DNA of 64,000 nucleotides from assembly GCF_964355755.1 (NCBI RefSeq), contig NC_092680.1:3720001-3784000 (forward strand), read 5' to 3'. This DNA comes from Antedon mediterranea. Lineage: Eukaryota; Animalia; Echinodermata. Position numbers and translations under genes: made by a program. The number at the start of each line of letters is the position of its first letter. The stretch's first letter is position 1. The notes beneath the pieces were generated by a model. It ran no database searches and was not told the origin of the DNA. It saw nothing but the letters and a program-made list of their open reading frames with translations. Shown here piece by piece: positions 23,501 to 58,900 of the stretch.

Positions 23501-26500
23501 AAAAGAAGTGTGATAGAAGTATAAGCAATAGAAGAAAAGAGAAAAGACACAAAAGGGACAGATATGATGAATCTTATTCAAGGTCAGATAAAGATCGAAG
23601 ATGTAAACATAAAAAACATCACAAAAAGAAGAAGAGAAAAGATAAAAATGATAGTAGACGTTTAGAGGGAAAAAATCCTGAACAAGATGAAGTAGAAGAA
23701 ACTAAAGTGAAAAAGCGAACGGAAAATGAAAAATATGAAATGAGTGAAAAGGAAAAGATTGAAAAAGGTGACAAGATTGAAAAAGATGACAAGAATAAAA
23801 AAGGAGAGAAAAAAGAAGCGAATATTGCTGTTATAAGTCCGGATGAGTCTGACGTTGAGGAAGGGGAGATAGAAGAAGTTGAGGAGAACATGGACGATGT
23901 GGAAGAAGGAGAAGTAGAAGAAGGAGAAATTGCATCTAGTTCTTCTAGTAAGAGCGTGTCTGAAATCAGTTCCCTGTCGGATATCTCAAGTGATTCAATG
24001 TCTGATGTATCGGATGAAGAAATGGATGAAGAAATGGAAGAAAGAGAAGAAGTGATGGAAAAAGAAGTGGAGCAAGGTTTGTGATATTCATTGTATGAAT
24101 GTTGTTTATTATTATTAATTTTTATTTTGTCATAATAATATCAACAATAATCACAAAAGGATGCATTTCTATATTGTACTATGACTCTCCCCAATCAAAA
24201 AAAAGTGTCTGTGTGCACATATAAATGTGAATAGAGTACAGAAATTGATTTAAATCTGATTTTTATAATGCAGATTTTAAAAAGTATCAGAACTTTTTAA
24301 TCTTGTGAAGGATTGTTGTTGCATCTTCAATTATTAACAAAATATCATGTTATTTTTTGTAGTAAATCGGCGTGAATACCCACCATGTATACGAATGATT
24401 GTGACCAAGTCTGAGAGCTTACAACCTGGTAGCTTGTTTATAATAACATGCATGGGAGGCAGTATTGGAAGGTATGTATAATATCACATTAATTATTTTT
24501 TAATTTATGATTGCAATTTATGACTACAAACAGTGGCATAACAGCTACAAGTGCTCACTGGCTAAATCCAGGGACCCCTGGAGCTTATGGAGGCCCATGA
24601 GCAGTGCGCAGAGGAGAAAACAGGTATTAAAATATGCCGAAAAGGCTAAAAACACCCGAGGCCTCAAGCATTGAAACTTGGAGGGTCACTTAGGTTTCCA
24701 AAACCAGGAGCCTCAGGCCTCTACGTTACGCGACTGACAAAATGTACCAAGAAACATCACACACATATATGTTACTATATTAATTTCCCCCCCCCCCTCC
24801 CCCTAAAAAAAAAAACAATACTTAAAAATAAAAATTGAAGAAACAAATAATAATTCATACTGAAATTTATTCAAAAAGCATCGTTGTTATTATATTTTAT
24901 CAAAACGTAAGATTTGATTATTTCAGAGAAGGTGAACATACAGTGCTTATACCTGAAATAGGAATTAGCAAAAATCATGCAGAGATCTTCTACTGTCAAA
25001 ACTCATGGCAGTATTATATCAGAGACTTAGGGAGTCAAAATGGCACACTTATCAATGCAAAACCTATAGGCGAGGTAAGAATTTCTATTTGAATAATTAC
25101 ATTTTTTTGCAATGCATGTTTTCTGTCTGTAGCTGACTAGAAGGGATGACCTTTTCTTAAAGTGCCCTTTTCAAATGCAAGACCAGCTGCAAAAATAATT
25201 ATAAATGTTCTTAACTAGCCTAACTTATGACGATTTTTACCTCTTTTTGTGGAAAAATAGTGCCCTTTTTTGAAAAAAAAACATATCTGTCAAAATTCTG
25301 GCTACATGCTTAGTTTTTAAAAGGTATTTTATTTAGTGAGAACTTTTATTTATAGTCAAGGAGTGAGAGTGAAGCACAAATTCTGTCACATAAGGATTAC
25401 CTGACCATTGGTGGTACGATGCTTCGACTACACATACACCCTGGAGCAGAAACTTGTGATGATTGTGAGCCAGGGCAAGTGCAGGCACTGCTGGCCCAAA
25501 CACAACCAAAAGGTAAAGCTCTGTCTAACCCTATCAAACTTTATGTGACAAACTAATGTGATGTGCCCATATATGGACATGATGATGTCATACCACTACC
25601 ATATTTGGCCATATCACTACCATATTTAGGAACACTTTTTTGTCAAACTAGTTTGATAGTGCAGACAGAGCTTATGATGTAACTTACAACTGCAAATAAT
25701 TATTTAATTGGCTGGGTTCACAAAGGGCAAACTAGTTTATCAAGGTGTATGGCCTAACATCTGCAAAGTATTTTTTTGCAGTTTGCAAAAGTGTGTCAAC
25801 TTGCCAAAAACTGTTATATTATTTTTTCCCTTTGTGTGTTTTTTTTTGTGAAACTTTTTTCATTAAATTCTACAGGTCCCCTAATACTATCGAATGACAA
25901 AGAGCAGCAAAGGCGGAAAGGTCTTAAGCAGATGAAGAAGAAATATGGTCTTACTAGAGAAACCTACGTTGAAACCAACTCATCGACTGCTAATCCAGCA
26001 TACACTGATAGATCAGACATCCGCCGCAAGACGGTTGGCAGTGACAACCCACACCAGAAAGACGACCTACCTGCATCTGTTGACAGGTAAGTGTGTTGTC
26101 GATCATTCCATATATGGTAGTCAATCATTCCATATATGGTAGTCAATCATTCCCTATATGGTAGTCAACACTCACGACACTTTCTGCAAATAGAAATGGT
26201 ATTATTAACATTGTTTTTAGTATTTGCATACAACTTCTCTTTTTTGTACATGATTGTGGATATTGAGATTAAATACTGTAAACCTTTTACAAGTCTGGAC
26301 TATACGTGTTGCTCAATCCATATTTTATGACCAAGATAGAAATAGAACCATATTAAAGCTCTGTCTACACTATCAAACTATATGTGACAAAAAAAAATGT
26401 GATATGGACATGATGTTGTCATATCACTACCATATTTAAGCATATCACTACCATATTTGGGCACATCACACTTTTTTTGTCAAATTAGTTCGATAGTGTA

Positions 26501-27587
26501 GACAGAGCTTTGGTGGCATATGTAACTAATGTTCATGTGGTGCAGTTATTTGATTTTAAATTCACACATTGCAGGGAAATTGCATCAGATAACGTTGGAA
26601 GGAAAATGATGGAGAAGATGGGATGGAAATCTGGAGAAACCCTGGGCAAGGATAACACCGGTATTAAAGAACCTGTAAGTTTGTCTGTTAAGCGATTCCT
26701 CATTATATTCAAATCTGATTATGATTTAATGACCCTATTGGTTCATCCATATCATTTAGATGCATGGCCATGTTTGATAGTGTATGGGTATGTTACGTAG
26801 AGGGTTTTTTAAGCATCTAGTCATTGGAGCTTGTTTCCCACTAGAGATGCAATGCAAGGACATATTATTTAATGTCAAGCGACAGTTTGAATTATCCATC
26901 GCTTGTGATTGGTTAAATGTTGCGTTCTTATGTATATGTATGGGAACCAAGCATTATACTACTAGATACTGGTCATAATGTCCGACGACTATACCTATTA
27001 TTTAACATGCTCTGACTTTTATATTATTACAGATTAATGTACTGTCTAATAACAAACGTGCTGGGTTAGGTGGCCAGGCGCGAAGAACGATAAGTGATCT
27101 CGCACTAGGAAACTTGCAGTCAGAGAAATGGGAAAGAGCAAGAGCCAGATATAATGCATTAGAGGAACCTGCACCAAAACCAATATCAATGAAAATAACA
27201 CAACCAAAAAAGATGGGGATGATGTGGACTAGTGGGGGCATCATTAAATCAGAGCCTAAAATAAAAATAGAAAATATATTTGGCAGTGATGATGATGATG
27301 AAAAAGAGGAAGAAGACAAATCAATGAAAATAACTCAACCAAAAAAGATGGGGATGATGTGGACTAGTGGGGGCGTCATTAAATCAGAGCCTAAAATAAA
27401 AAAAGAAAATATATTTGGCAGTGATGATGAGGAAGAGGAAGAAGACAAATCAATGAAAATAACACAACCAAAAAAGATGGGGATGATGTGGACTAGTGGG
27501 GGTGTCATTAAATCAGAGCCTAAAATAAAAATAGAAAATATATCTGACAGTGATGATGATGAGGAAGACAAATCTACTGTTAAATAA
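20600..27587 (+). CDS. AGGF1: Angiogenic factor with G-patch and FHA domains 1 (coiled coil, OCRE, FHA, G-patch)
   Basis: Phase-consistent exons: 20600-20764, 20990-21097, 21459-21587, 22408-22611, 23386-24076, 24363-24471, 24927-25074, 25356-25512, 25876-26086, 26575-26674, 27033-27587 (23253-23337 optional). OCRE GFVYDETSGLYYDYTSGYYY; FHA PPCIRMIV...IGR...ISKNHAEI...DLGSQNGT; HIHPGAETCDDCEPGQV; G-patch NVGRKMMEKMGWKSGETLGKDNTGIKEP. Confidence 0.95.
24531..24736. mobile_element. hAT-like MITE with 5-bp TSD
   Basis: CAGTGGCATAAC ... GTTACGCGACTG ends; ACAAA on both flanks. Confidence 0.65.
26102..26168. repeat. 22-bp tandem repeat, 3 copies
   Basis: ATCATTCCATATATGGTAGTCA x3. Confidence 0.8.
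27186..27572 (+). repeat. Coding tandem repeat, three units of about 41-45 aa at the AGGF1 C-terminus
   Basis: Units start at 27186, 27321 and 27450: SMKITQPKKMGMMWTSGG(I/V)IKSEPKIK(I/K)ENI..SDDD/E-rich..DK. Confidence 0.95.
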
Positions 27588-29400: not shown

Positions 29401-31902
29401 AGCTCTTAACTCTTTCAACTCCAAATCCTCAAATGAGACTTAGTTTATAAGCATGACAAATTATAAAATAGTTTATCCATCCTATAATTGGCGAGTTACT
29501 CGATGTTGGATGCGTATGAAATAAAACAAATTTAAAATGGGAGAGCCATAATCCTACAAACAATTAATATTTATTAAATTTAAAACCGGCTTACATCTAC
29601 ATATATAATTTACCTATTATGTTCAACATAATGGATTAACATAATTAAAATTACATTATATTTAACAACATACAACATTCAATATACTTTTGTATTAACA
29701 AATGAAAATCAAGCAATGAGACTCTTATATTCAAATGTTACTTTTTTAGTTTTAAGCCGTTTAAGCGACATCAAATACAATAATAGTGGCGTTAAAGAAC
29801 TATTAAAATCAACCATAAGGGCCAATTTACAGAGACAAGCGGTAACGGTACGCAGAAAACCACGTTGCTTGTACCATGTAGAATATTATCTATCCTGAGC
29901 GGAAACCTCCTGTCCACTCTGTGTTGTATGTAAATGGATGGCCATACAGAGTAACATAGATTCTATATTTATATTACCGTTCGTCTGTGTAAACTTACCT
30001 TAAAGATGCAAATATAACAAAAGATTAACAAAGACTGTTAAGAATTTTAGGGGTTAGGGTTAAATTTGTTAGAAATTTAAAAAAAGAAGACCCTTGACAA
30101 TCACAATATCTGATCTGTACTAGGCAACAAAATGTTAAAATGAAATTGTTTATATCAAATATTAAAATGAAACAAATGTAAAGGAACTCTTCTCATTAAA
30201 AAAGAAATAAAAAGAATTCCCATCAATATTTTTATTAATTACAAATTATTTTATACAATTACATAATTTTATATTGCCCTATTAATTAATTTTTTTTAGT
30301 AAAAACACTCAAATTTGAATATTAATCCATAAATGTAAAATAACAATATTTCTATTGTGATAGCATTGCAGTTCATAGGTTAATATAACAGAACACTCAC
30401 TCAAGCGGAACACTTTCCCGAGAAATTAATAAAGAGACTCCCTAAGGATAGTGTTAAACTCTGTCTACACTATCAATCTAGTTTGACAACAAATTTGTGA
30501 CCAAATATGGTAGCAATATGCCCAAATATGGTAGCAATATGCCCAAATATGGTAGTGATATGACATCATGTCCTTATATAGGCATATCACATTTTGTTGT
30601 CACATAGTTTGATAGTGTAGACAAGGCTTAAAAGTAATGTATGTTTTAACACTACAGTCCTATTATAAAGTACAACTTTGTTTGTCCCCTGAATGTGTCC
30701 CCTTAATAGGGGTTCAACTGTACAACTGATTAACATTTGTTTTTAATAATAATATAAACCACCTCTACAAACTTATATAAAAATATTTGTACCTGTATAA
30801 ATACATAATATGATATTCATAAAGTGTTATGACATTGTTCTGTTATGATACACCTAAAACTCTAAAATCTACACTATCAGACTTTATGTGACAAAAAAAT
30901 GTGATGTGCCAATATATGGACAAGATGATGTCATATTACTATCAAATCACACGTTTTTTTTGTCAAACTAGTTTGATAGTGTAGACAGAGCTTTAGTTTA
31001 GTCTTGGCATCACCTTCCAAAACTAGAATTAATTACTTTAAAATTTAGTATTCTGTAAAAGTTATCGTAAAATTGGCAACTCCAGACTACTTTAAATGCA
31101 TTTTAAAACGACATGACTACATATGATAACAAGGAGGTGATAGAGTAATGCCATCTTATTATGCTTACAAACCAGAGAGCTTCCACAAATATATTAATAT
31201 CAGAATTTAGTGTGGTCATGTTGATAAGCTATCACATCTAATGTTGGTTTGTAATGCTCTGTTCCATCTTGCTCTGTAATTGAACATTTCTTACTACCAA
31301 TATCATGGGACGTATTTGGACACTCAAACCATAGTCCTCTGGGTATGTAGAAATACACCATTGCCACCACTATAGTTATAATAAGCACCCACCACAAATA
31401 GTATATTATTTTTGTTTCGGTCAATAAAATACATAGCCTATGAAAATACGAGAACATTATTGGTCGAAATATTATATTATTAAGGCCAAGGGATCATCAA
31501 ATATTGATTGGTTGAATTTCTATGGTCATTTTTCGCTGAGTTAAGCAATGGTAGTTAGTTAGGCCCTGCCTGCAGAATAAAAATGTTGGCTATTTAATAT
31601 AACAGATAGTGCCTTTCGGTGTTATTTGATGTTATTTTGATATCAAAAGCAATTATATTTTTCTTGAGGGAAGAATAACTTCTTGTGAAGACATTTCATA
31701 TCATTCACATATCTGTATATTATTTTTACCTTAATAACCTTTGACCTTTGATAGTGGCAGGTCGCAATTTCAGATTCTCAACTAAGCATTGCATTTTTTC
31801 ATACCTGTTTGCTCAACAACTACGAAAAAGATCATCAAAAATATCTGTAAAATCCATGTCGGAGGACGGAGCCTGCATAGCCTCTGTCCCCCAGGTTCTT
31901 TG

Positions 31903-34900
31903 TCAATCGAGAGAAATGATGTCTTGGTTGAAGAGACTACTACTCGAAGAAGAACGTCCATGATCTGGCATTGGAGGATTCTGATATATGTTTGAATGCT
32001 ACGGAAATAAAAACATTAAAACATAGCTTAAGCAAAAAGTAATAGGGTCGTAGCCAGCATGAGACAGAGCTCACCTCATCTGCAATTTTTATATTTTATA
32101 TTAATACTATTTAAAGCATCTTTGCCTCGTCTGTTTTTAAACTTTCTCTATGGCCTTGAATGGCGATAGTATCGGTTTTTAGGTTTAGGAGGAGATATAA
32201 CACATTTTAGGTTAAGTGTATGTACTGAAAATGAAATGTACTCACTGTATACAGCATTGACATAAGATCTATATCTGTAAAAAAAGTAATAACAAAATTA
32301 TATTTTGAAAATATTTGGAGTCGTTCTATGGATGGGTGTTCCTCTGTTCTTTAACAAGAGAACCAAATAATTTATTATCAAAGTCCAAGTGTTTGGTAAA
32401 AATTAAAAAAACTGAAATATCAACATACTTGGATAGTCAGGCATGTGCGTCATTGGTAGCGGTGGAATATTCATATATTCGTTATAGCTTGGAAGGTGAA
32501 GGTGCGGGCTCGAACTTTGCGTATTTAACGAGATACTTGAAGTATTGGACCCAAAAGGTGGCATCGGTGTCGGTATGATTTCAGGACTTCTGTAAAAAAA
32601 AAAATTAAATTAAAAAAGTTATTCATTTATATTCATTAAAAAATAGCATAATTAATTTACGATTCAATTTAAGTTTTAAATACATTGAAAGAGATTTCAG
32701 GATTCTGTAAAAAAAAATATTTTAAATTAAAAGTAATTTATTTATATTAATTAAAAAAAATATTGTGTTATATAGCGTAATTAATTTACAATTCAATTTA
32801 GTTTATCTAAATTGAAAATATTTCTTAAAAAAAATAAAAAAGAGAAGGAAAAAAATTGGAATCAAGAGGATTTGAACCTGGTACCTTCAGACTGGAAGGC
32901 AACGATGTTAACCGTGAGCTAAAATGCCATACAACTCATCCCTATATCATAGTAGTACTATTATTAGTAACAACTTAAAAATATTTCAAACAAATAGTTC
33001 CCTAGAGCATTGTTTTGTAAATACTGAATTACAATGTAATAATTGTTTAAAATTACCTATTTAGCAAGCATTCATATTCTTTTTATATTATATCAAAATA
33101 ATTCCATGGGGTCCATGCAACTATTAAAGCACAGATATAGCTAAGAATGTGCTTTTAATTTGTGAACTATATGATGGTTGCTTGTTGAAGGACTTTATCC
33201 GGCCACAAGTCACAAGTAACATTTTATAATTTACTTAATTAATTTGTTTAATGATGGAGATGGCACTAACATTTTAACAAATTATTCATGGAAACATTTG
33301 GAATTGAATGTCATAATAAAAGCCTGGTTCCCACAACTTTCCTTTCTTTTTGGGTATAATTTTGTGATTTCAAATTCAGATAACACTCAGGAAAACTATA
33401 TCAACATTTATTTTGTGATTATTTCTACTTTTCTCTCGCACATAAAATTACATAAGTAATTGATGGAATAAATTGTGAATTATTGAGTCAAATAATCTAT
33501 GATTGACGATGACTGATTGCAAATAAGAAGCCAAAATAAAGCAATGTTTAAGAGTTTTTTTGCCTTAATACACTATTTAATATGAAAACAAATAAAAAAC
33601 ATGCTGTGCAGATTAACAGTAACAATATTAGTGAGTTGGATCCACATTTTAAAATATAAAAAAATCATTTTAAAGAAGAGTCCTAAATTAAGACTTTCTG
33701 CAACCAAACACTAACAACACCTAAATACTTAAAAGGGCATTCAGTCTAAAGCCTGTCTACACTATTAAACTTGAAGTGCCCATATATAGACATGATGGTG
33801 TATATCCATGGAGTAAAGAATAAGAGGAGGCACAACTCGGCCTAGCTATCCAGTTAATCCAATTAGTATCACGCTGTGCGGTAGTGCTTAAGCATAGGGT
33901 AATAAACTTCCCATAACGATCCTTTGAAGAACATCCTGTTTACCCGTGCAGCTCGCTGCAGAGTCGGCTCTGATTACGTAACACCCTAATTAAGGAAGAA
34001 GCCAGGCATGACATCGGTGACAAAAAAAGTAAACAGAGGCTGCGCAGTAGTTTCTAATACATCATAGTGAAGCATGACCTTTGTGCAGTTGTTCATTGTT
34101 CTTTGAGCTTTTTTCTCGAAAAAACCGTTTAAAAATCGAGTAAATTTTCACGGAGATATCGCAGTTTTTATACCAGCTAACAAATTAATCATATTTTTTA
34201 TCAAGCCATAGACGTATCATTTGGTAAATCGAAATTTTACCGTTTAAGCAACTTTTTAATTTACGAACCCTAGTGCATTTTGTAGCATATTAAAGACTTC
34301 AACTTATTTTAAAATCACATTTTAGTGCGCGCAAATGCGCGCATGAAAAAAATTATATAATTTGTTCTCATGAATATTCAAAAATATACGTATAGTAGAA
34401 TTCCAACGACACAATTTCTTATTTTTATTACTGTATATGACATTTAATTTATGTTTCAGTCTATATTATGACTGTTTAGCAAAACTAACATTCTTCTATT
34501 TTAGTCTCATATTGTATAATTAAATTATTTATGATATTAATATCATAAAATATATGATTTTTACGATCACATACTTAGAGTTCAGTGAACTTGTAGGACT
34601 TAAATTATATATCGTTTAACGATTTGTGGCTACACATAGGCCTAGTAGTTCGTAATATATTATTATTTAATAAATAGCCTAAATAAGGATAATATTTAAT
34701 CCCATAATGATGGACATATTCAGTGCATACCGTAACCGGTAGGCCTAATAGGTTCAGGCATAGGCGCGCCTATAGTAACAATAAACAATATCAATAATAA
34801 TAATAGGTTTTTTTTTATGTAGGTCTATATTAATATATTAATAATTGTAATAACGTTAGAAAACAAATAGTAGTAATATTTTATTAAAGAAGAAATTAAT

Positions 34901-37900: not shown

Positions 37901-40900
37901 ACGGTCAAAACGCGAAGTGGCTTTCCCACTGCAAGTTCAGTAGGTCTACAAACAGTATATAGTACACCTTTCACGCTTGAACGCACATCGCCTAGCAAGA
38001 GTATTGTGACGTCCTAATACGCATGTGTACTAACACCAAAATTGACCGCGGGCAGTAAACATTGTACTCTTTGCTAATTGGGTTACGTAACGGCAGTGTT
38101 TAGCACCTCCTTAAATACTCATTACAAGCATAGCCTTAAGCAAGCGGTAAACACGATGAACTATTCAAGTTGTGTCTCCTCTTATTCTTTACTCCATGGT
38201 ATATCACTACCATATTTGGGCACATCACACTTTTTGACAAGCTAGTTTGATAGTTTAGACAGAGCTTAAGGTTGGAGTCCAATGGTGATGTCCCCTCAAG
38301 TGTGGAAGCTGCCTGGGGTGGAGGCTGCCTGGGGTGGAGGCTGCCTGGGGTGGAGGCTGCCTGGGGTGGCCCAAAGGTGGAGTTAGTCTACCTGTCCAAG
38401 GGTCATTAATATTGGAAAAGATGACACATGTAAAAATAACATTTTATACACTTACAACCCAAAGAAATTAAAAGTTAAGACAATATAATATGAAATTTGT
38501 TGTCATGTATGTCATATCCTGTCATATCTACAAATGTAAATTAATATACTCATTTTAAAATCTATGCTTTCTTGTAACATAAATGAATACAGCAGAACCA
38601 ATGTTATGGGGACACCTTAAAGACCCAACAAATAAATTGGTTTAGTGTTGTTAAAACATTATTGCCCCTAATTTGTTTCACAGGAAAGTGTCCCCTTACT
38701 ATAGGAGTGTCCCTTCAAGTGTTCTCTTGATATGAGTAATCCCTTAAATGTGAGTGTCCTCTTACTAGGGTTCCCTCTTAATAAGGATATTCCCAAATAG
38801 GTCTTCTAATGTATTTAGAATAAAATAATATTTGAGTAGTAAACAAATACAATTTTGAAATTATTAATTTATAGCGACATGCAAATGATACAATCATGGA
38901 TGCAACAAGCATGAAGAACCAAGAAACAAAAGGCAAATTATAAGTTGTTTCAAGCGCAATTACAATGCAATGACCACAGTAGAACCTCTATAAAGGGGAC
39001 AATTTTTGGAAAACACAATAAAGTGCTCTTTAATTGGGTGTCATTGAATTGGGTTTGCAGTAGTATTAAAACATTTCCACAAAATGATTACACAGGCTGC
39101 CTAATATTGGTGTGCGCTTAATATTGGCGTGCGCTTAATATATGTGTCCGCATAATATTGGTGTCCGCTTAATATAGGTGTCCGCTTAATATAGGTGTCC
39201 GCATAATATAGGTGTCCGCTTAATATAGGTGTCTGCATAATATAGGTGTCCTCTGAATAAGAGTTCTACTGTATTATAGATTATATTGCAAATATTGAAA
39301 TGGTCTTTAAAAAATTATTCTGTGATTTATCTATTAAGCAGTACACATTTAAATTGTGTATGTCAATATCATGCATTAGTATAGAACTGAAAAATAATAT
39401 AATTATTAATAAATATATTTCCCTAATTGACACATAATGAATGAAATGAGGTGGGGGAATCCCCTTCAAGTTACTGTACTCATTTTGTAAATAACATTTA
39501 AGGTTGTAACTTGTACAGAGCAGTGGGAAACCCCCTTTACAATCGTATAATTTAAAGTATATGACAATGTATAAATCTTTTTATAAATATTTTCTTCCCT
39601 CTATTTTACATTCACAAACAGAAATGTTTTTGACATCTTCAACACTATTCTACAATTTTGTAACAAATAAATGAATATACATATATAAATATGTTTTATA
39701 ATAAACATTAACACAAACGTTTTTTACAAAACATTTCTTTAAAATAGCTTTCCAATATATTGTTAAGAAGGATAATTATAATGTGGGTAGCATGGGTAGT
39801 TGTTACCATTAGGATACCAATGGTATCTTTGTACCATGGGTGGAGGGGTTACGTTGTAATACTGCTGTTGTGGGTGGTTGGCATTATATTGCGGTTGCAT
39901 GTAGTAATTGTTAGGATAGCTTGGACCATCATAGTATTCTGTGCGCTGTCGTTTGGCACATGATTCTGTCATATGTGACCCAATGTTATTGGTTCTTACG
40001 AGTGGTTTTATAGCTGCTGTGTTAGATAACTTAGTACTTTCAGTTTCCTGTGTTTTATCAACAAGTACTATGTTGTTATTTTTACTTTTTTCTGTGTAAC
40101 TCTTTTCTGTGTAACTCTTTTCTGTGTAACTCTTTTCTCTGTTATTCTTTTCTCTGTTATTCTTTTCTGTGTTACTTTTTTCTGTGTTGCTTTTTTCTGT
40201 GTTGCTTTTTTCTGTGCAACTCTTTTCTGTGTAACTCTTTTCTGTGTTATTCTTTTCTGTGTTACAATTTTCTGTATTATTGTTCACAGGATTTGGTTTC
40301 ACTGGTGTATTATTTGTATGTTCTGTTGTCTTTTTTAAATGTGTGCTTTGTTCTGTATCTGTGTTCTCTGTATCACTTTTACAGGGCGATACGGAGCGGG
40401 ATTTTCTTTTACGTGTTTGATCAGCTGGGGATAAAGATGAGGTTAAAATTCTTTCAAAATCTTCAAAGTCCATGTCAGGTGTTAGTGGATCAGATGGTGG
40501 AGGTACTGAATCATCAACAATAGTGTAATCTGAATCAGAGTTCTTATCACTAGCTTGTTCTGGTGAGGTAGGATTGGAAGAGCTTGTTAAGCTTATAACT
40601 ACTGGTGAAACGCACCCTTTGTTAGATGAAAAGTCCAGTTTTGTAGGCTCTACAGGTATAGCGCTGTCTTCGTCATCGTCTGATTCCTCATCTGAGCTTA
40701 TTGTTAGGTCAACATACTCCACCTCTGTCTTACTAAAAGGTTTGAAAGAATTTGCTGAAAAGACAAATTATAAATAAATAAATTATCCATATCACTATAA
40801 GCATTTTTGTTAAGTATCAATATAAGAGGGGAGGTGGGGGAGGGGGAGTAGTAGTAAAATAGGGGAGACCCATTTGGCAAGCATGATTTATTATTACTAA

Positions 40901-43900
40901 TCATTTATGGCCCTTGCAAAAACTAAACATATAAAACATTGAACATTAGTGATATGGTAAATAAAGGTCAATTTACACCGACGAGAGGTAACGGTAAGCT
41001 AGGCCCAAAAAATAAAGGAGAACAAAACTAAAATAATGTAAATGTCTGCATTAAGGATCTTTCACACCTGTTCTGGCACGGTTCTGGTCTGGCACCGGCA
41101 AATCAAATCAGATGTTTCGTTTTTGAGACGCTTCACATGGCTTAAGTCAATCAATATGTGCGTAGTTGCATGAAAATGAAACATTGGCGTTATCTTTGAT
41201 TTGGAATCGTGCCGGATATTGACCATAACCGTGCCGAAAAAAGTGTGAAAGTCCCTTAAACCGAAACCCTGCATATCATGTAATGTACTGTATAGCCCAA
41301 CATTTTGCACGCCATTAATTTTCATGGCTTTCGCGATGAGAAAACAATCGAAGAAATAGCAAAAATAGTGAAATTCCCAACAATGTTTTTACTTCATCTG
41401 ACTGTAAGCCTAGATAGAATAGTGTTTAAGTATATACAGTTGTTAATGCACACATGGTATAAATAGAATGTCACTGGTTGAAGGTACACACCTAATTGGT
41501 GACAGTGGCTTAGGCTGCTTTTGTGCTTTCCTGGCAGCTAGTGACTATGTGGAGGTACACACCTGATTGGTGACAGTGGCTTAGGCTGCTTTTGTGCTTT
41601 CCTGGCAGCTAGTGACTATGTGGAGGTACACACCTGATTGGTGACAGTGGCTTAGGCTGCTTTTGTGCTTTCCTGGCAGCTAGTCACTATGTGGAGGTAC
41701 ACACCTAATTGGTGACAGTGGCTTAGGCTGCTTTTGTGCTTTCCTGGCAGCTAGTCACTATGTGGAGGTACACACCTAATTGGTGACAGTGGCTTAGGCT
41801 GCTTTTGTGCTTTCCTGGCAGCTAGTGACTATGTGGAGGTACACACCTGATTGGTGACAGTGGCTTAGGCTGCTTTTGTGCTTTCCTGGCAGCTAGTGAC
41901 TATGTGGAGGTACACACCTAATTGGTGACAGTGGCTTAGGCTGCTTTTGTGCTTTCCTGGCAGCTAGTCACTATGTGGAGGTACACACCTGATTGGTGAC
42001 AGTGGCTTAGGCTGCTTTTGTGCTTTCCTGGCAGCTAGTAACTATGTGGAGGTACACACCTGATTGGTGACCGTGGCTTAGGCTGCTTTTGTGCTTTCCT
42101 GGCAGCTAGTGACTATGTGGAGGTACACACCTAATTGGTGACAGTGGCTTAGGCTGCTTTTGTGCTTTCCTGGCAGCTAGTGACTATGTGGAGGTACACA
42201 CCTAATTGGTGACAGTGGCTTAGGCTGCTTTTGTGCTTTCCTGGCAGCTAGTCACTATGTGGAGGTACACACCTGATTGGTGACAGTGGCTTAGGCTGCT
42301 TTTGTGCTTTCCTGGCAGCTAGTGACTATGTGGAGGTACACACCTAATTGGTGACAGTGGCTTAGGCTGCTTTTGTGCTTTCCTGGCAGCTAGTGACTAT
42401 GTGGAGGTACACACCTGATTGGTGACAGTGGCTTAGGCTGCTTTTGTGCTTTCCTGGCAGCTAGTGACTATGTGGAGGTACACACCTGATTGGTGACAGT
42501 GGCTTAGGCTGCTTTTGTGCTTTCCTGGCAGCTAGTCACTATGCACTATGTGGAGGTACACACCTGATTGGTGACAGTGGCTTAGGCTGCTTTTGTGCTT
42601 TCCTGGCAGCTAGTGACTATGTGGAGGTACACACCTGATTGGTGACAGTGGCTTAGGCTGCTTTTGTGCTTTCCTGGCAGCTAGTCACTATGCACTATGT
42701 GGAGGTACACACCTGATTGGTGACAGTGGCTTAGGCTGCTTTTGTGCTTTCCTGGCAGCTAGTGACTATGTGGAGGTACACACCTAATTGGTGACAGTGG
42801 CTTAGGCTGCTTTTGTGCTTTCCTGGCAGCTAGTGACTATGATTTTATATTTTCTTTTGCGCTGTGGTTGTTTAATTTGTTGATCTGTATTGTATTTTGT
42901 AAAATGTATCTTTTGCCTAAATAAATAATAATAATAATAATAATAATAACTCACTATTTGTACTATCATTACTGGATGTTGAGCTGGCTTTTACGCTTTC
43001 TTGTGTGCTTTCCACATTAGTGACTTTGGTTGCTGAACCCAATACCACCGTCTCCTCCTTGTTGTTGTTGACTGGTTTCCATCTACCATCTTGTAAGAAA
43101 TGTATCTCATTGGTATCGGGTGATGACTGAATAATCTCTTGGAATAGCCTACAAAAAAAATGAATCAATACATAGTAAAATTCGTCTTGGATTTAGTAGT
43201 TTAAACTTTTACTTATATGATTGTGGTTTAGCTGCTTCTCCCATTTTGTTTTAAGGTAGTACTGGTTCTGAGGACCCATTTCACTTTTGTATTCTTTGCC
43301 TTTTATTCTTTATTCCGACATACACTACTCACCAGTGTTGATGAAATTGTTAAATATTTACTTGATCAAGACTCTACTCTTACTTCAATCAATCAATCAA
43401 AATCTTACTTATTAACTTACAATCAACTTTTATGTACCGTAATATTTTTGTTTTTATTAACTACTCTTTAAAATAAGCAAAATATCATTTTATTAAACTG
43501 TTCAGAAATGTATAGTCGATTCTAAAAGATTTTTTATATAGATTTTCGTTGTTATATATTTCCAAGTTTTGTTGCTAAGCTCATATTTGCTATATGTTGC
43601 AGAAGCTGCTTGAGATGAGACTAAGGCTGTACCTTGTGAAGAGCCTTTGAGCGAAATATTGAATAAAAACTAATTTTTTTTAAATAGCCTACAAAAACAA
43701 ATCCAAACAAATTAATAGGAGGCCTACATTTTAAATGAATAAAAGGTAAACTTACCCATCAAGAACAAGGAGATTAAACGGTGCTTTCTTATCACATACA
43801 GGACAGATCCATGTGGCTTTCCTGAAATTATAAAATAAGTATCAATAAACGTCAATATATACCTGTCAATCAATCAATCTGAATCCTCAGAAGGTGTAGT

Positions 43901-49900: not shown

Positions 49901-52900
49901 GAATACCAGCGATTGCTACTTGTTTGAAGTATAGGCTTAGGCCTAGTTATAAAACCTAGGAATTACATGTATTAAAACTTGAAAAGAACATTCCATGATA
50001 TTAAAATTAACTAAAATCTAACCAATAAATATGTCAAGGCCTAACGCACGGAAGAAATATCTGTCAAATATAACGCACGATTTAGAAAGGTCAGTCAAAA
50101 CACTGAGCAAATTAGCCTAGGCGTGTGCCTATCGCTGTCGCTTGAGACAGTTCGCCCTAATAGCCGTACCGAGGTAATTATTAGGCCTAAAATACCATTA
50201 GAATTAAATATATAAAGCCTAAACTATGTATTTATGTTCTAAATGTATTTATTTATGATTTCTAATAATGTTAAGTACTTACGTGCGTTATATCTTGCGT
50301 GCGTTATATTTTTGACAGAAACTAGTTTTCGTTGTTTAGCGACGCAAGTTTACATTCTGTGAAGAATTTTTGCAGCGGGAAGCCATCGCGGGAGCTATAT
50401 TTGTAGGCTGCCATGTAGTATCGTCTGTTTGCTCATTCTCGGCGGTAATGACAGGAAAACATTGCGTGCGTTAGTTTTTGACAGACAATGGTGACATTTT
50501 TTTTAAATCGGGATTTATATACAATTAAATTACATAACATTTAAAATCTGATGCATTATATAGAGTAAACATATCCTTGAATTGTTTAACATTTTGGTTT
50601 TCGTATTGCCGTTGTTCTAGGCCTAACCCAGCCTAGGCCTAGTCAAACTTGATTGTTGACGGACACAGTAACGCACGTCAGCACAAGCAAAGATATTAAT
50701 TTATTATACAAAAATAAAATATTGTGGTGTCAATATATTGATTTTATTTATTGTTTATACATGTACTTCCAATATCCCAATCAATATTTTTTATTATACT
50801 TCACAATTATCAAATATAAATTGGATTATGAAGTGACACTCAAAATGTTACAAATTCATGGTGTGAGAATAGGCCATTATCACAACAAATTTGAAATTTA
50901 AAAAAAAAATAGTGGGTGGAGTGAAATGAAACTGTGTAAGTTATACCGTTGCATGTTAAACTATCTATTAATTCCCTACACATATTAGTGTATAGTATAT
51001 AATATTTTTTATAAATACAAATTAAAATGGCATTTTATGTAACACCTTAGCATATTTTGACTCATTTAAAAGATAATGAATATATTGGTATCTATCTACT
51101 CAGTTATACGATACCAAAATAAACTGGTTTGTCCATGGCCAAGGAAGTGCTAAGTCTACCCAAGTTTCATAAAGTAAAGCTCTGTCTACACTATCAAAAT
51201 GTATGTGCCCATATGGAGATGATGATGTCAAATCACTACCATATTTAAGCATATTACTAACTATATTTGGGTATATCAAATTTTTGTCAAACTAGTTTGA
51301 TAGTGTCAGACAGAGCTTTAGACATTGGTTTCGCTGGGCTGCATAGGTGGCCTAGCATGGTCGCAGGCCTAGGTAGGCTCATGAATTTGATTCCTATAAC
51401 AAAAACCATACTATTAAAATGCTCAGTTTTAAGGTTTTTGATAACCACAGGGCAATATCAGTAATGAAATCCCTGGAGTGGGATTTATTTTTATTTTATG
51501 TCTTTAGGCATATGAGGCCAAGGATTACTAATAGTAAATTAATCACCGTCCTATCAGATAGGTGGTAATCCCCAGATACAGGGGCTATTTTGTAAACCAG
51601 TTCACCGGAGTAACCCCCCTACTTGTCTAAAATGATGTGTACACTGGACCTACGGTTTATAGTTCGAATCGGCCTCGAACCAACGCCAATTGGATAGCAC
51701 ACAATGTTAAATGTTAAACAACATTAAAATTAAACATTAAATAGGGTGGGATAACACACAATGTTTAATAACATTAAAATTAAACATTAAATAGGGTGGG
51801 ATAACACACAATGTTTAATAACATTAAAATTAAACATTAAATAGGGTGGGATAACACACAATGTTAAATAACATTAAAATTAAACATTAAATAGGGTGGG
51901 ATAACACACAATGTTTAATAACATTAAAATTAAACATTAAATATGGTGGGATAACACACAATGTTTAATAACATTAAAATTAAACATTAAATAGGGTGGG
52001 ATAACACACTATGTTAAATAACATTAAAATTAAACATTAAATAGGGTGGGATAACACACAATGTTTAATAACATTAAAATTAAACATTAAATAGGGTGGG
52101 ATAACACACAATGTTTAATAACATTAAAATTAAACATTAAATAGGGTGGGATAACACACAATGTTTAATAACATTAAAATTAAACATTAAATAGGGTGGG
52201 ATAACACACAATGTTAAATAACATTAAAATTAAACATTAAATAGGGTGGGATAACACACAATGTTTAATAACATTAAAATTAAACATTAAATAGGGTGGG
52301 ATAACACACAATGTTTAATAACATTAAAATTAAACATTAAATAGGGTGGGATAACACACAATGTTAAATAACATTAAAATTAAACATTAAATAGGGTGGG
52401 ATAACATACTATGTTAAATAACATTAAAATTAAACATTAAATAGGGTGGGATAACACACAATGTTAAATAACATTAAAATTAAACATTAAATAGGGTGGG
52501 ATAACACACAATGTTTAATAACATTAAAATTAAACATTAAATAGGGTGGGATAACACACAATGTTTAATAACATTAAAATTAAACATTAAATAGGGTGGG
52601 ATAACACACAATGTTTAATAACATTAAAATTAAACATTAAATAGGGTGGGATAACACACAATGTTAAATAACCTTAAAATTAAACATTAAATAGGGTGGG
52701 ATAACACACAATGTTAAATAACATTAAAATTAAACATTAAATAGGGTGGGATAACACACAATGTTTAATAACATTAAAATTAAACATTAAATAGGGTGGG
52801 ATAACACACAATGTTTAATAACATTAAAATTAAACATTAAATAGGGTGGGATAACACACAATGTTTAATAACATTAAAATTAAACATTAAATAGGGTGGG

Positions 52901-55900
52901 ATAACACACAATGTTTAATAACATTAAAATTAAACATTAAATAGGGTGGGATAACACACAATGTTTAATAACATTAAAATTAAACATTAAATAGGGTGGG
53001 ATAACACACAATGTTTAATAACATTAAAATTAAACATTACTTACTTAATGCCCGTGTATGGTCTGCATTTCTAAAACCATTACTGCGTAATCTTTGTAGT
53101 AATATATCTGAAGTTAGTTGTTTTACAAGGTAGACGGCAACACAGTATTGCTATAGAGAAAAAAACATCAATAATTTGTATTCCTTATACAACACATGTT
53201 AAACTTGACCTTGATATTTTATTTAGTATTCAAGGAATACATGTAAAAGACCTACACTACAGTTAGATTTCCATGACATTTGTATCCAGTTGTACACAGT
53301 ACTGTAGGTTAACATTTCATAGTAAAGAAAAATTTAATTTTTTAAAGAAATGTTATAATTACTTACTCGACCAAACTCTTGCGCCCACGTTATATCTACT
53401 CGGTTAGGTTCATTTAAGTTCGGGCGTATCAGATGCGTAATGTTCACTGGCCGACTTGGTCGTCTTGGTTCCGCACCTGCCTTACTTTGTGGCAGAAATG
53501 CCTAAAAAAATGAATTAAAAATACACACAATTAATAAACTAATTCTCTTCATTTACTAATTGAAATACATAGTAGTTTAGTACTGTATGTATAGTAGCAA
53601 TAGAACCTATGGAACATAAAAGCAAAAACTTCCAAAAATGATTGGACAAATACTGTAAATATATCTTATCTCAATCTTATCTTTAAAAAATATAAATTAC
53701 AAAAAGAACCAAAAACAATTAAACACATTAATATAATAAAGTAATCAAATAGATTACACTAAAACATGAAATACCAAAATACTTAAAAAAATTACCATAA
53801 ATATTTATATATGATAGAGAGTACAGTCCCTACAGTACAGTATTGCTCGTTAAACAAAAATGGTATCATAAATTCATCATTAATTTTTACAAAAGAATCA
53901 ACAGTTCATGCTAGTTAATATGCTTCTTGAAGACAGGATTTACATGAAAAACAAATTAATAACTGATATAATACAGCAGGGAATTCCCCTGAGATTTCCA
54001 GGTCAACGGACTGATGTCTATATGGCTCAGGTCAATTTCCTTTTTTGAAAGGTTAACAGGAAATGACATCATAGAACACCAGACTAATGTAGGAATCATT
54101 AATTGACATCGGGTTATAATTTTAATTGCTTCCATAAGTATTTCTTTGTTTGGTACAACATAGTACAGGTTCCAGGTAGCACTATTTAAAATAAAATGAT
54201 TTCCTAAATAAATTAAATAGTATGGAATTGTTACGACGGTCTTAACAGACATATAACTGGAAATTCCCAAATCATGTCATTATAATCTCAAATCATACAG
54301 TAATTCTAAGGAATACATTGACTGGAAATAACAGGAATAAATAATAATAAATAAATAAAATGTGTGGAACACAAATTTAAAAAGATATAATGATCATTAT
54401 TAGTATACATTTAATTTATGAAGTTATTATCAATAACTGCATAAATTAAATGTGACCAACCTACTGGATAAGTGCAACTACTTAAATAGTAAATGATATA
54501 TTTAAAATGGAGTTCTGCAAAGTATAAGATGATAATAATGATGATGATGATGATGATTACAATTATTTGGAATACACCTACATTTAACAATATTGAAAAT
54601 CTCAGATGTAAGTAATGATTAACAATTTACTCCTTTTTCATATTGCCTCACTATTATTAAGTATTATTATACTATTACTAAATTTTAAAAAAATTACTTT
54701 TAACACAAACTGAAATCAATACTTTTAAGTGTTTCTTTCAATTCTTGCTTGTTGAAATGTAAAATGAATTTGTGCAGTAGCCTAGCAACATTTCAAAATG
54801 TCTTGAAATATTTCATCTTAAAGATTGTAAAAATAATTCAGTATTAAACCAGGAACCGGATTAAAAAAAAATAAAATTATAAGTATATATAATAAGATAG
54901 GAAAACAATTAGGTAGCACAATAAGATTTGAGCATCATGTGATCCGTGTATTAATTGCAAAATGCCTACAAGGAACAGTAATACCAGAAAGTTAAATTCG
55001 CAGTAGGATGAAGATTGTAGGTAGTGTCAGGTTTCTGTTTTTGACACACCCTGTAGGGTAACCCGACACTGCTGATATAAACTACAGGTAGTAGTATAGC
55101 CTTGAATTCATAACTACAGACCACTACAATCTAAACAATTATTGAATGTTGAATATTACAGAAGTGAATAACATTAAGAAGAGTGCAAAATGGTCTATTT
55201 AAAATTATATTAATCTTCATTTTTCATGTTTTTGGGGGACAATACAATATACAATACTTTAGGTATAAACCAAAATCATAATCTCTAAATTACAGTAATA
55301 TGCAAAGTAATTAATGAAGGAATAATGTTGTCAGTTTTAAGGTTTAATAATTGTGAACATAGTACTACCTACCACTACTAATACTATGGAATCAGCTAAA
55401 TTTGTGTTTTTGAATAAGGGTCTGTTTCTGCTCCAAAAAAAAATAAATAACTGGTTGACAACCATGTAAATAAAATAACCCCAATTTCTTGGCAGAAGAA
55501 AAAGGACCAATTTTCAATAACCGGTTAAATAGCAGCCTGAAAATAACGATTAAAACACCCAATCGATTAGGTGTTAGAACGATAAAATAAAAATTAATTG
55601 ATTGACCACCATTGACCTTTGACCCAACTATTGTTATCATCTTGATAACCATCTGAGTGCATTTTGGGTAATGTTAATGTTTTTCATTGACAACCACAAA
55701 CTAATTTAAACAGGTTTTATAAATTTAGCAGTCCTGATGCAGTTTACATAAAAATTACATTTTTTATCTATTTTGAAATACAAAACGGTTTATTTGCTGA
55801 GGCAGAGCATCTAAAACTATATCTGTTGAGTTGTAAGATTTATTTTACTGCCTCATTGTACTATAAACCTTTGCAGTATTTCCACCTACCCTCAACTTTT

Positions 55901-58900
55901 TAAACCTTTGTATAAAGTAGAATCGTACAAAATACTTACCGGTAGTGGACATAACTTATTGTTTACTTTCACACAAACACTCCCTGGAAATTTGTCATCT
56001 TGCTCACAACTTGTTTCTGCTAGACAAAACCTTCAAAATAAAAAATATCAATGAAAAAATAAGTATAAAATATGAATTAAAAATGAAAAAGGAATGTTAG
56101 TTAATGTTAATAACAAATCTGTTAATAATATATTTATTTAAGGCAAGCCAAAATATGAGCATTTTAATTTCCATTACATTGGATAACAAAAGGAATCTCT
56201 ATATGTACATCATTGATTGATTTTTTTTAAACTTAATAATTTATTAATTATTAAAAAAATCAATCCAAAAAAGGATATTCCAACAATTAAAAGGTGGATA
56301 CATGCCCTTTAAACTAAAGCTCTGTCTACACTATTAAACTTTATTTTACAAAAAGATGTGGTGTGCTTATATATGGACCTAATGATGTCATATCATTACC
56401 ATATTTAGGCACATCACACTTTTTTTTGTCAAATTTAGTTTGTTATCTAATTATAATAAGACCCTGGGATTGAGTTTAACCAAAGAACATTGATTTAAAA
56501 ATAATACGCTTCCAACATTAAACTAAATTAATAATCATACATTTTAATTATTAATGATTGATTTCATAAGATGAATTATATGTACTGTTCAGGTCTTTAT
56601 GGTAATTAAGGATTTTTTGTTTAATTAATGATATTTTATCATAACAATATTCAGTAAGTGTTTTTCATGTTTTGTTTGCTATGAAAAAAAAAACAAAACA
56701 ATTTCACAGAATGTCTAATCAAACGGGAAGTGATAAAGTATCAAAAGATTATTATTATAATTTTTCTTGTTGAGAGATCCATAGATAAACCACAATAACC
56801 TTCTGTTCTAACAGCTGTATGTTTCTAATCCATGGCGTGCAGTAAATAAAAACAGGAATATTAAGTCTCTCAACCTGCTTTGACTTTTTCAATTATTGTA
56901 CCACACTGTAAGCAAGCCAGTCGATTCTAATTCACCAATCTACAAAATTTATGCATCAGTTGATTGTCCAGTATTTGACCATGGAGTAAATCTCAATTAA
57001 AGTATTTAATTGTAACGCATTTATTGGTTTCGGGCTTGTTTCTTTTGAATATTGTAATGTCACCAGTTGGAGAGATAAAGGACAGTCTAGTACTGATAAA
57101 CTTAGAATCAATTTGTATTCACTTGTAGTTGTACATGATTGACATTAAACCATAGCCTTGTTAGACTAAAGTATTTCAACCTTACAACAAATGTTAGTAG
57201 CATTGTTGTAGAATATGTCTTTTGTAAACAAAACCTTTCTGTACCTACACTATCTAACTTTATGTGACGTCACTACCACATTTGGGCATATCACTACCAA
57301 ATTTGGGCATATAACTACCATATTTGGGCATCACACTTTCTTTTTGTCCAATTAGTTTGTAGAAAGAGCTTAATACCTTGAAATTGTTTAAATACCCTGT
57401 GAAATATATCCGTGCTGCTACTACTACAGTATTACAATTGTTAATAATTCATTTAAATATGCAGTGTGGAGGAATTGACTTACCTTAATTGAACTTGTAC
57501 TGCATATTCTATTCGTGGATTCGGTGTCCAAGACTCACGAATCATCTGTAATTGCTGCGGTGTTAGGTGAAATAACACGGTTCTTTGGATTTCTCTATAT
57601 TTACCAGATGGCACTGTCATTTAAGAATATTAATCAGCTTATTAATTTACACAGTAAAGCCTCTATTAAGGGGACACTTTCAGGAACCAACAAAGTGTCC
57701 TTTGAATAGGGGTGTCCCTTGAATAGGTACTGTAGGATTATCCCTTGAATAGGGGTGTCACTTGAATAGGTAGGATTATCCCTTGAATAGGTAGGATTAT
57801 CCCTTGAATAGGTAGGATTATCCCTTGAATAGGGGTGTCACTTGAATAGGTAGAATTATCTCTTGAATAGGTAGGATTATCCCTTGAATAGGTAGGATTA
57901 TCCCTTGAATAGGTAGGATTATCCCTTGAATAGGTAGGATTATCCCTTGAATAGGGGTGTCACTTGAATAGGTAGGATTATCCCTTGAATAGGTAGGATT
58001 ATCCCTTGAATAGGTAGGATTATCCCTTGAATAGGGGTGTCACTTGAATAGGTAGAATTATCTCTTGAATAGGTAGGATTATCCCTTGAATAGGTAGGAT
58101 TATCCCTTGAATAGGTAGGATTATCCCTTGAATAGGTAGGATTATCCCTTGAATAGGGGCGTCACTTGAATAGGTAGGAATGTCCTTTGAATAGGAATGT
58201 CCCTTGAATAGGAATGTCCCTTGAATAGGGGTGTCCCTTGAATATTAATGTCCCTTGAATAGGGGTGTCCCTTGAATAGGAATGTCCCTTGAATAGGGGT
58301 GTCCCTTGAAAAGGAATGTCCCTTGAATAGGGGTGTCCCTTGAAAAGGAATGTCCCTTGAATAGGGGTGTCCCTTGAAAAGGAATGTCCCTTGAATAGGG
58401 GTGTTTCTTGAATAGGGGTGTTTCTTGAATAGGGGTGTCCCTTGAAAAGGAATGTCCCTTGAATAGGTAGGAGTGTCACTTCAATAGGGATGTAACTTCA
58501 ATAGGGATATCCCTTTAATAGGATTGTCACTTGAATAGGATTGTCACTTGAATAGGAGTACCCCTTCAATAGGGATGTCAACAGTAGAAAAACACTTACC
58601 AAATGTTTTATTTGAACAATAAAAAGTAAATGAAAATCAATCATTATTTCTTTAAAAAAACCAATTCCAGTACTTACCCAGACCAGTTGGTTTTACTAGG
58701 TCATCTTGGATATCATAAAACGGTAATGGACAAAATTTAACATCAGGTCTAACAGGCTGAGGTGAGGTCAGTTCAATATGTTGACCTCCCACGTGCTGTG
58801 GTGTATGTTGCTGAGAACTAAACGGATAGAATTGTGGAAACTGCGGTAATGCTGGATTGTTTGGCGGCGATATTCTTTCTGTTACCGTTTGATTTGTATT

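Follow-up and report, generated by a model that had tools for sequence, protein, structure and literature searches.

A candidate stop-codon readthrough cassette behind the terminal SUMO-interacting motif of PIAS in the crinoid Antedon mediterranea

The studied sequence (hereafter, the window) is a 64,000-nt stretch of AT-rich animal DNA from Antedon mediterranea (RefSeq assembly GCF_964355755.1, contig NC_092680.1, positions 3,720,001 to 3,784,000). All coordinates below are those of the window, and features lie on the minus strand unless stated otherwise. Here we describe the 3'-end of the PIAS gene found in it, where the stop codon behind the terminal SUMO-interacting motif (SIM) is followed by the elements of a candidate programmed readthrough cassette.

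The gene was identified by comparison with known proteins. The translated exon 59131–58679 is 100% identical to the PIAS2-like protein P0001 of A. mediterranea (XP_071964420.1) and 86% identical to a protein of Anneissia japonica, and peptide mapping places 13 exact segments of P0001 in the window, from 60462 to 31906. The SAP, PINIT and SP-RING domains of P0001 each score above the Pfam cut-off, as defines a PIAS/Siz SUMO E3 ligase. Judged by these sequence matches, the window carries the A. mediterranea PIAS gene; the coding span of the 597-aa isoform, delimited by exon 2 identity, peptide mapping and Pfam, comprises 13 coding exons at 60462–31903.

Two alternative 3'-ends of the gene diverge within a composite exon (40754–39763), which was delineated from the open reading frame (ORF) list, the donor position, the tail of the Anneissia protein P0002 and RNA contigs of the run X5. 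If the donor inside it is used (last exon base 40616), the isoform ending in DIISLD results, whereas reading past this donor down to 39763 yields an alternative long terminal exon without DIISLD, encoding a long tail with TEKS/N repeats. An X5 contig of depth 13.4 covers 40142–39222 in the region of this alternative exon, and P0002 finishes in the equivalent tail, RefSeq having chosen that isoform type for Anneissia. The DIISLD isoform continues through exon 11 (32589–32429; 161 nt, phase-1 donor, placed by peptide mapping) and a 29-nt microexon (32274–32246; peptide mapping and the loose end of an X5 contig), which sets the last exon into the DIISLD frame. The coding part of the last exon (31998–31903), supported by the RefSeq protein end and by the relative described below, ends with the SIM-type DIISLD and stop 1. 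This frame is the real one: XP_071964420.1 has DIISLD as its end and maps exon by exon. Ends of the DIISLD type are common to many echinoderm, amphioxus and vertebrate PIAS proteins, and by homology the crinoid motif presumably binds SUMO. Hemichordate PIAS proteins (P0006, P0013, P0046, P0142) have no DIISLD end and carry a different conserved acidic-aromatic final segment. As to the microexon, skipping it into 31998 would shift the frame, so that the protein would finish with another, short C-terminus. The acidic-hydrophobic motif that it encodes is conserved among echinoderms, and the amphioxus isoform P0092 apparently carries a tandem duplicate of it.

An earlier examination of the letters alone (the sequence-only reading) had proposed that the gene bears a readthrough cassette coupled to escape from nonsense-mediated mRNA decay (NMD). 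The elements that it named were all found in their places. Stop 1, at which the RefSeq protein ends, is a TGA at 31905–31903 with C at the +4 position, followed by CAA. Behind it 29 sense codons (31902–31816) lead in the same frame to stop 2, a TGA at 31815–31813, and a donor motif CAG/GTATGA has its GT at 31804. Minimum-energy folding predicts the stem-loop as an RNA hairpin at 31893–31860, consisting of 8 bp, an A.C mismatch, 3 bp and a 2-bp inner stem. The spacer between stop 1 and the first G-C pair is 10 nt, as had been claimed, or 9 nt if the outer U-A pair is counted. On 50 nt the fold has an energy of −19.8 kcal/mol (z −2.7), with stem pair probabilities of at least 0.98; it is reached by 1 of 200 shuffles, and by 15 of 1000 in another shuffle set. 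This is the strongest 50-mer in the last exon and the 3' untranslated region (UTR), equally strong folding being seen in 0.4% of the 2558 minus-strand 50-mers of the window. Stop 1 is unpaired in the predicted fold. The candidate readthrough peptide, QRTWGTEAMQAPSSDMDFTDIFDDLFRSC, has a net charge of −4 and two acidic F-x-x-I/L motifs, which may resemble LC3-interacting or acidic activation motifs.

Searches with the extension gave little. No solved-structure match and no Pfam match was found for it; the last exon read through the stop matched only P0001, one of three candidates, in the protein search, nothing among short proteins, and two unrelated repeat proteins among 50% representatives; a DNA pattern for the acidic motif had 0 matches in metagenome contigs. 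These blanks are evidence neither way. A likeness between the extension and the DMDFED stretch of the alternative terminal exon was tried and rejected as not significant (shuffle p 0.06–0.08).

The search for sequencing runs returned five runs from the same organism and three DNA runs (X6, X7 and X8; two samples, one study) from another, organism B. All of them consist of assembled contigs. The X5 contig over the site is 1247 nt long with a depth of 39.6, and covers 31998–30972 without gaps. Its loose end behind 31998 is the reverse complement of the microexon, and thus the contig represents spliced RNA, although none of the runs is recorded as RNA. Its 220 unaligned letters correspond to the microexon (29), exon 11 (161) and 30 more, and from this length we infer that the contig stops exactly at the branch into the alternative terminal exon. 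It has no joint within 32020–31540 and 0 differing letters over 31998–31540; no splice interrupts it at the 31804 donor or at the acceptor-like sites before 31897, 31844 and 31569, and it retains 31804–31570 at full contig depth, whereas the true intron just upstream (32020–31999) has zero X5 depth. Stop 1 and the extension therefore stand on one unspliced mRNA path, a contig being an assembly path and not a single molecule, and the 3' UTR (31812–30972), with the unused 31804 donor and the acceptor-like site before 31569, is assembled unspliced to at least 30972. Since the contig crosses these sites unbroken and the true intron is uncovered, the dominant mRNA has no junction after the stop; rare splicing at 31804 may occur, as minor forms are lost from contigs and a spliced one would be thinned out by NMD.

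These data bear directly on the NMD half of the sequence-only reading. The geometry that it gave is right: a junction at the 31804 donor would lie 98 nt after stop 1 and 8 nt after stop 2. The supposed use of this donor, and with it the coupling to NMD, runs against the X5 contig, which is unspliced there and contains no junction more than 50–55 nt after stop 1, such as exon-junction NMD requires.

Organism B, which we infer to be a close crinoid relative, diverges by about 4–8% in the intron and UTR pieces compared. Each of its three runs spans the site (32020–31540) on one contig, and all show the same three differences within the extension, at 31885, 31864 and 31831 (3 changes per 87 nt, no indel). 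The sequence-only reading had proposed to look in related species for a conserved TGA-C, an extension free of frameshifts and stops, substitutions of the coding type and compensatory changes in the stem. In this one relative both stops and the +4 C are unchanged, and neither a frameshift nor a stop interrupts the extension. The three changes (ACA>ACG, TCC>TCT, GAT>GAC) are all synonymous third positions; with one relative and three changes, this pattern is suggestive and no more. The chance of an all-synonymous outcome under neutrality is 0.027 for three transitions and 0.024 for the exact change types, and in both other frames the same three changes are non-synonymous. Two of the three changes lie in the hairpin (the third is outside it), and both keep the pairing; they are one-sided, and no two-sided change was seen. 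One turns the A.C mismatch into a G-C pair (−6.2 kcal/mol), the other a G-C pair into G-U (+2.8 kcal/mol), so that with both the predicted hairpin is stronger overall (−23.2 kcal/mol, z −4.1).

The pattern appears to change at stop 2. In the known coding part of the last exon all 4 of 4 organism B changes are synonymous. Beyond stop 2, among four changes fixed across the organism B runs, 3 are non-synonymous in the continued frame and 1 is synonymous (three further differences, variable among these runs, were excluded from the count), and a 13-nt insertion lies near 31740. For the known coding part and the extension pooled, the contrast with the sequence after stop 2 gives a Fisher p of 0.024. 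Two other frames were considered and rejected as coding: an antisense ORF at 31745–31963, whose third positions coincide with those of the extension, carries 3 non-synonymous changes at first positions in organism B, and in the microexon-skipped frame, open through the donor, 7 of 7 changes are non-synonymous.

Taken together, we regard it as fairly probable that the region is a programmed readthrough cassette producing a minor PIAS isoform about 30 residues longer. What was seen directly is the sequence layout, the unspliced mRNA path across the site and the coding-type pattern against one relative; the UGA-C context, the spacer length, the frame-specific pattern and its end at stop 2 coincide. 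The proposed course of events is as follows. The main PIAS frame ends at UGA-C, with the predicted hairpin 9–10 nt downstream. With the UGA in the ribosomal A site, the hairpin would sit at the mRNA entry channel and slow termination, and a near-cognate tRNA would decode stop 1 in a few percent of events, both as in known cases. The near-cognate tRNAs for UGA are those for Trp, Cys or Arg. Readthrough would add one residue and the 29-residue acidic-hydrophobic tail behind the terminal SIM, the extended translation terminating at the second UGA. The tail would turn the terminal SIM into an internal one and add the acidic F-x-x-I/L motifs as a possible docking or degradation signal, and the tailed minor isoform may have different partners or stability. 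No splice in the 3' UTR is required. On one relative, the stop, the extension and the stem pairing behave as the readthrough half of the sequence-only reading expects, and the NMD half fails its one test.

Mechanisms of this class are well known. Stems that stimulate readthrough follow the stop by 6–9 nt in viruses, kelch and SEPN1, and for two alphaviruses 6–8% readthrough in cell reporters and a 3- to 14-fold stem effect are described (PMC3159437). Like the alphavirus and furovirus cases and Drosophila kelch and headcase, the crinoid site has UGA-C, a short spacer, a stem of about 12 bp and a synonymous-site pattern consistent with coding (PMC3159437). Unlike in them, the spacer is 9–10 nt rather than 7–9 nt, the hairpin is compact and local instead of a long-loop stem, and no compensatory pairs are seen (Firth et al. 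2011, PMC3159437). CAA after UGA is the start of the CAA-UUA stimulator; the crinoid shares the CAA directly after the stop with the tobamovirus-type context, although its CAA-AGA departs from the CAR-YYA hexamer, the next codon not being UYA (PMC3159437). In insects, TGA-C is enriched in readthrough genes, and 3' structures occur in 9–10% of them vs less than 1% (PMC5100048). As in the insect and crustacean genes, we find in the crinoid TGA-C, a conserved first stop, a second ORF apparently of the coding type, a 3' structure and a regulatory gene with many introns; it differs from that set in being an echinoderm, with 2 species compared vs 12–21 (Jungreis et al. 2016, PMC5100048). As for the protein, PIAS1–3 bear two SIMs, and the DIISLD-type end is common to the crinoid and the C-terminal SIM of vertebrate PIAS1/2/3 (review PMC8616421).

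Literature searches, judged by their listings, returned no described readthrough or readthrough extension of a PIAS gene, and those on echinoderms and sea urchins, judged by title or start of the abstract, no described readthrough case. The searched parts of the supplements of PMC5100048, PMC13278127 and PMC3840789 contain neither PIAS names nor the identifiers of the fly orthologues, and such partial supplements do not establish the absence of PIAS from the fly and human readthrough lists. By these searches the phylum and the gene family appear to be without a described case.

PIAS genes in metagenome contigs were scanned for the same layout. The best 80 of 108 confirmed stretches gave 78 PIAS loci, and a terminal SIM-type end was recognised in 57 of them (51 distinct). 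Among the 78 loci there was no recognisable echinoderm and no tail similar to the extension. One locus, L019 (1428–1925 of its contig), identified as PIAS by Pfam and known from a single unreplicated contig of a metagenome collection, has TGA-CAA, a 9-nt spacer and a long predicted stem (−39.1 kcal/mol, z −5.5, reached by 0 of 200 shuffles). Behind its terminal SIM, 163 open codons lead up to two stops, a length that 1 of 20000 base shuffles reaches. From TGA on, 10 of its first 12 bases are identical to those of the crinoid. ESM Atlas contained no usable match for its tail. On these sequence features L019 is a stronger single-sequence readthrough candidate than the crinoid gene. Two other loci deserve mention in their own right. 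L026 (2127–2212) encodes a PIAS ending in DVISLD; TGA-CAA follows, the frame is open for 27 codons until the contig ends, and there is no hairpin. L037 has an in-frame TAA amid the acidic region, then 68 coding-like codons up to a normal SIM end; since the contig also carries a frameshift, this TAA is probably an assembly error.

Several results weigh against readthrough of stop 1. Within one genome the layout is suggestive rather than compelling, because at least 29 open codons follow 81 of the 423 TGAC sites in the window, making the open frame alone ordinary, and because the hairpin signal depends on window size and vanishes on 100 nt (z −0.9, as against −2.1 on 106 nt). The codon-usage score, trained on 563 PIAS codons, is +4.6 for the extension in the readthrough frame vs −0.7 and −8.3 in the other frames. 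It adds little, as control stretches reach the same value: 4.7% of 344 open non-coding stretches, 8.8% of base shuffles, and 7.8% of 77 GC-matched open stretches, which makes it not significant. The informative substitutions number only three and come from one close relative, no two-sided stem change was seen there, the variability of the extension (3 per 87 nt) is barely below that of its surroundings (about 4–6% in nearby UTR and intron pieces), and the contrast of the extension alone with the sequence after stop 2 is not significant (Fisher p 0.14). Among the 51 distinct PIAS ends, TGA-C follows the SIM end in two, L019 and L026, and a strong stem in one; since the other 49 are without it, the layout is not general in PIAS, and the L019 tail has no sequence similarity to the crinoid extension. 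Abundant readthrough was found only in Pancrustacea and functional cases are rare elsewhere, hence the prior for an echinoderm is low (PMC5100048). Readthrough also leaves unexplained the pair of acceptor-like and donor-like sites inside the extension.

Four other explanations were weighed. The hairpin could be a conserved 3' UTR structure or a GC-rich chance fold behind a tight stop, the open frame and the synonymous changes being coincidental. The frequency of open frames after TGAC, a substitution density near background at n=3, the non-significant codon score, the choice of the site after looking and the rarity of readthrough in non-pancrustacean animals all speak for it. Constraint on the hairpin alone, however, does not remove the synonymous signal: hairpin-compatible transitions are synonymous in 10 of 39 cases (3 of 16 inside the hairpin), so that two such hits have a chance of 0.04–0.07, and the third synonymous change is outside the hairpin. 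We therefore hold this explanation unlikely, though it deserves to be kept in mind. Quite improbable, in our estimate, is that the second half of the extension is coding by way of splicing. In the extension, the F-T-D codons read TTTTACAG, which resembles an acceptor and lies 40 nt before the donor; a minor isoform could skip the microexon and the start of the last exon, enter before 31844, end at the second TGA and splice a 3' UTR intron from the donor-like GT at 31804. The stop of such a cryptic 40-nt exon (31844–31805), being 8 nt from the junction, would be NMD-safe, and the hairpin would regulate the acceptor. Of 38 such acceptors in the window, a single one is followed by a donor at 20–70 nt; the phase matches that of the exon 11 donor; and neither site is altered in organism B, where the downstream acceptor before 31569 turns from CAG to TAG and is still an acceptor. 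Yet the exon is not spliced in X5, whose contig passes both sites unspliced; between −20 and −5 the acceptor contains 6 T vs 10–14 in three real 3' acceptors, it has no branch-point-like motif, and its pyrimidine run is partly paired in the stem. Nor does this account for the TGA-C, the spacer and the two synonymous changes that precede 31844. Such an isoform would finish with the extension's last nine residues instead of the microexon motif; these residues loosely resemble the motif that the microexon encodes in sea-cucumber PIAS isoforms (shuffle p 0.002 for the last 150 aa and 0.016 for the whole protein, chosen afterwards among all collected proteins), a likeness that arises partly from the acceptor sequence itself. 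Among other acceptors tried, those before 31883 and 31872 have no pyrimidine tract, and the AAG acceptor before 31897, though in phase with the 40616 donor, is weak and unseen in RNA.

The full model of the sequence-only reading, in which the 31804 donor is used, ordinary termination exposes the mRNA to NMD and readthrough saves it, is one particular form of the readthrough explanation that needs a further, unobserved step, and we think it very improbable. In its favour, an NMD target would be scarce in steady-state RNA, organism B retains both the donor motif and that of the downstream acceptor, and readthrough can protect mRNAs from exon-junction NMD; in human cells, low readthrough can stabilise NMD targets that depend on the exon junction complex (PMC5360307). 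Nine conserved donor bases at about 5% divergence are nevertheless weak evidence, and the X5 transcript keeps 31804–31570 at full depth while the real upstream intron is absent from it. Finally, the UGA could be recoded otherwise, either to selenocysteine or by A-to-I editing to a Trp codon, which seems scarcely credible. A stem 6 nt after the UGA does assist selenocysteine insertion in SEPN1 (PMC3159437). The Rfam scan gave no match to a selenocysteine insertion sequence (SECIS) among 11 matches with E up to 5 in 32100–30400, and no match to this or any other family over the site, which makes selenocysteine unlikely; the stop is unpaired in the predicted fold, and editing of the majority of transcripts is unlikely because the RNA contig has no differing letter there. 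The hairpin loop contains an ATG, but ribosomes re-initiate inefficiently once they have translated a long ORF, so re-initiation there received little weight.

Some features of the locus lie outside this question. Upstream of exon 11, a near-tandem duplication of the intron end (32730–32590) gives rise to another T-rich acceptor, which precedes the real one by about 115 nt. Three long tandem-repeat arrays occupy PIAS introns (41480–42860, 51700–53050 and 57700–58560). Exons of a convergent gene on the plus strand (25758–27587), encoding a G-patch-like sequence and repeated acidic motifs, stop about 3.4 kb short of the PIAS 3' UTR. Very high-copy palindromic elements resembling miniature inverted-repeat transposable elements are present at 30450–30640, 30860–31000, 38200–38270 and elsewhere, with a depth above 10^5 in DNA runs and weak microRNA-like Rfam matches far below threshold.

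Functional readthrough is regarded as common in insects and crustaceans alone, a handful of cases being known from other groups. It is a doubtful idea that PIAS genes of distant invertebrates have repeatedly put UGA-CAA, a 9-nt spacer and a stem behind the terminal SIM. If it were true, recoding would switch PIAS between a form with a free terminal SIM and one with a tail, a device of ancient or convergent origin, and the crinoid gene would be the first described structure-stimulated readthrough gene in an echinoderm, with a tail possibly also reached by splicing. If the crinoid cassette itself is real, it would be a compact element of about 100 nt in a deuterostome invertebrate, and would show how a SUMO E3 ligase can be modified right at the SUMO-binding motif that ends it.

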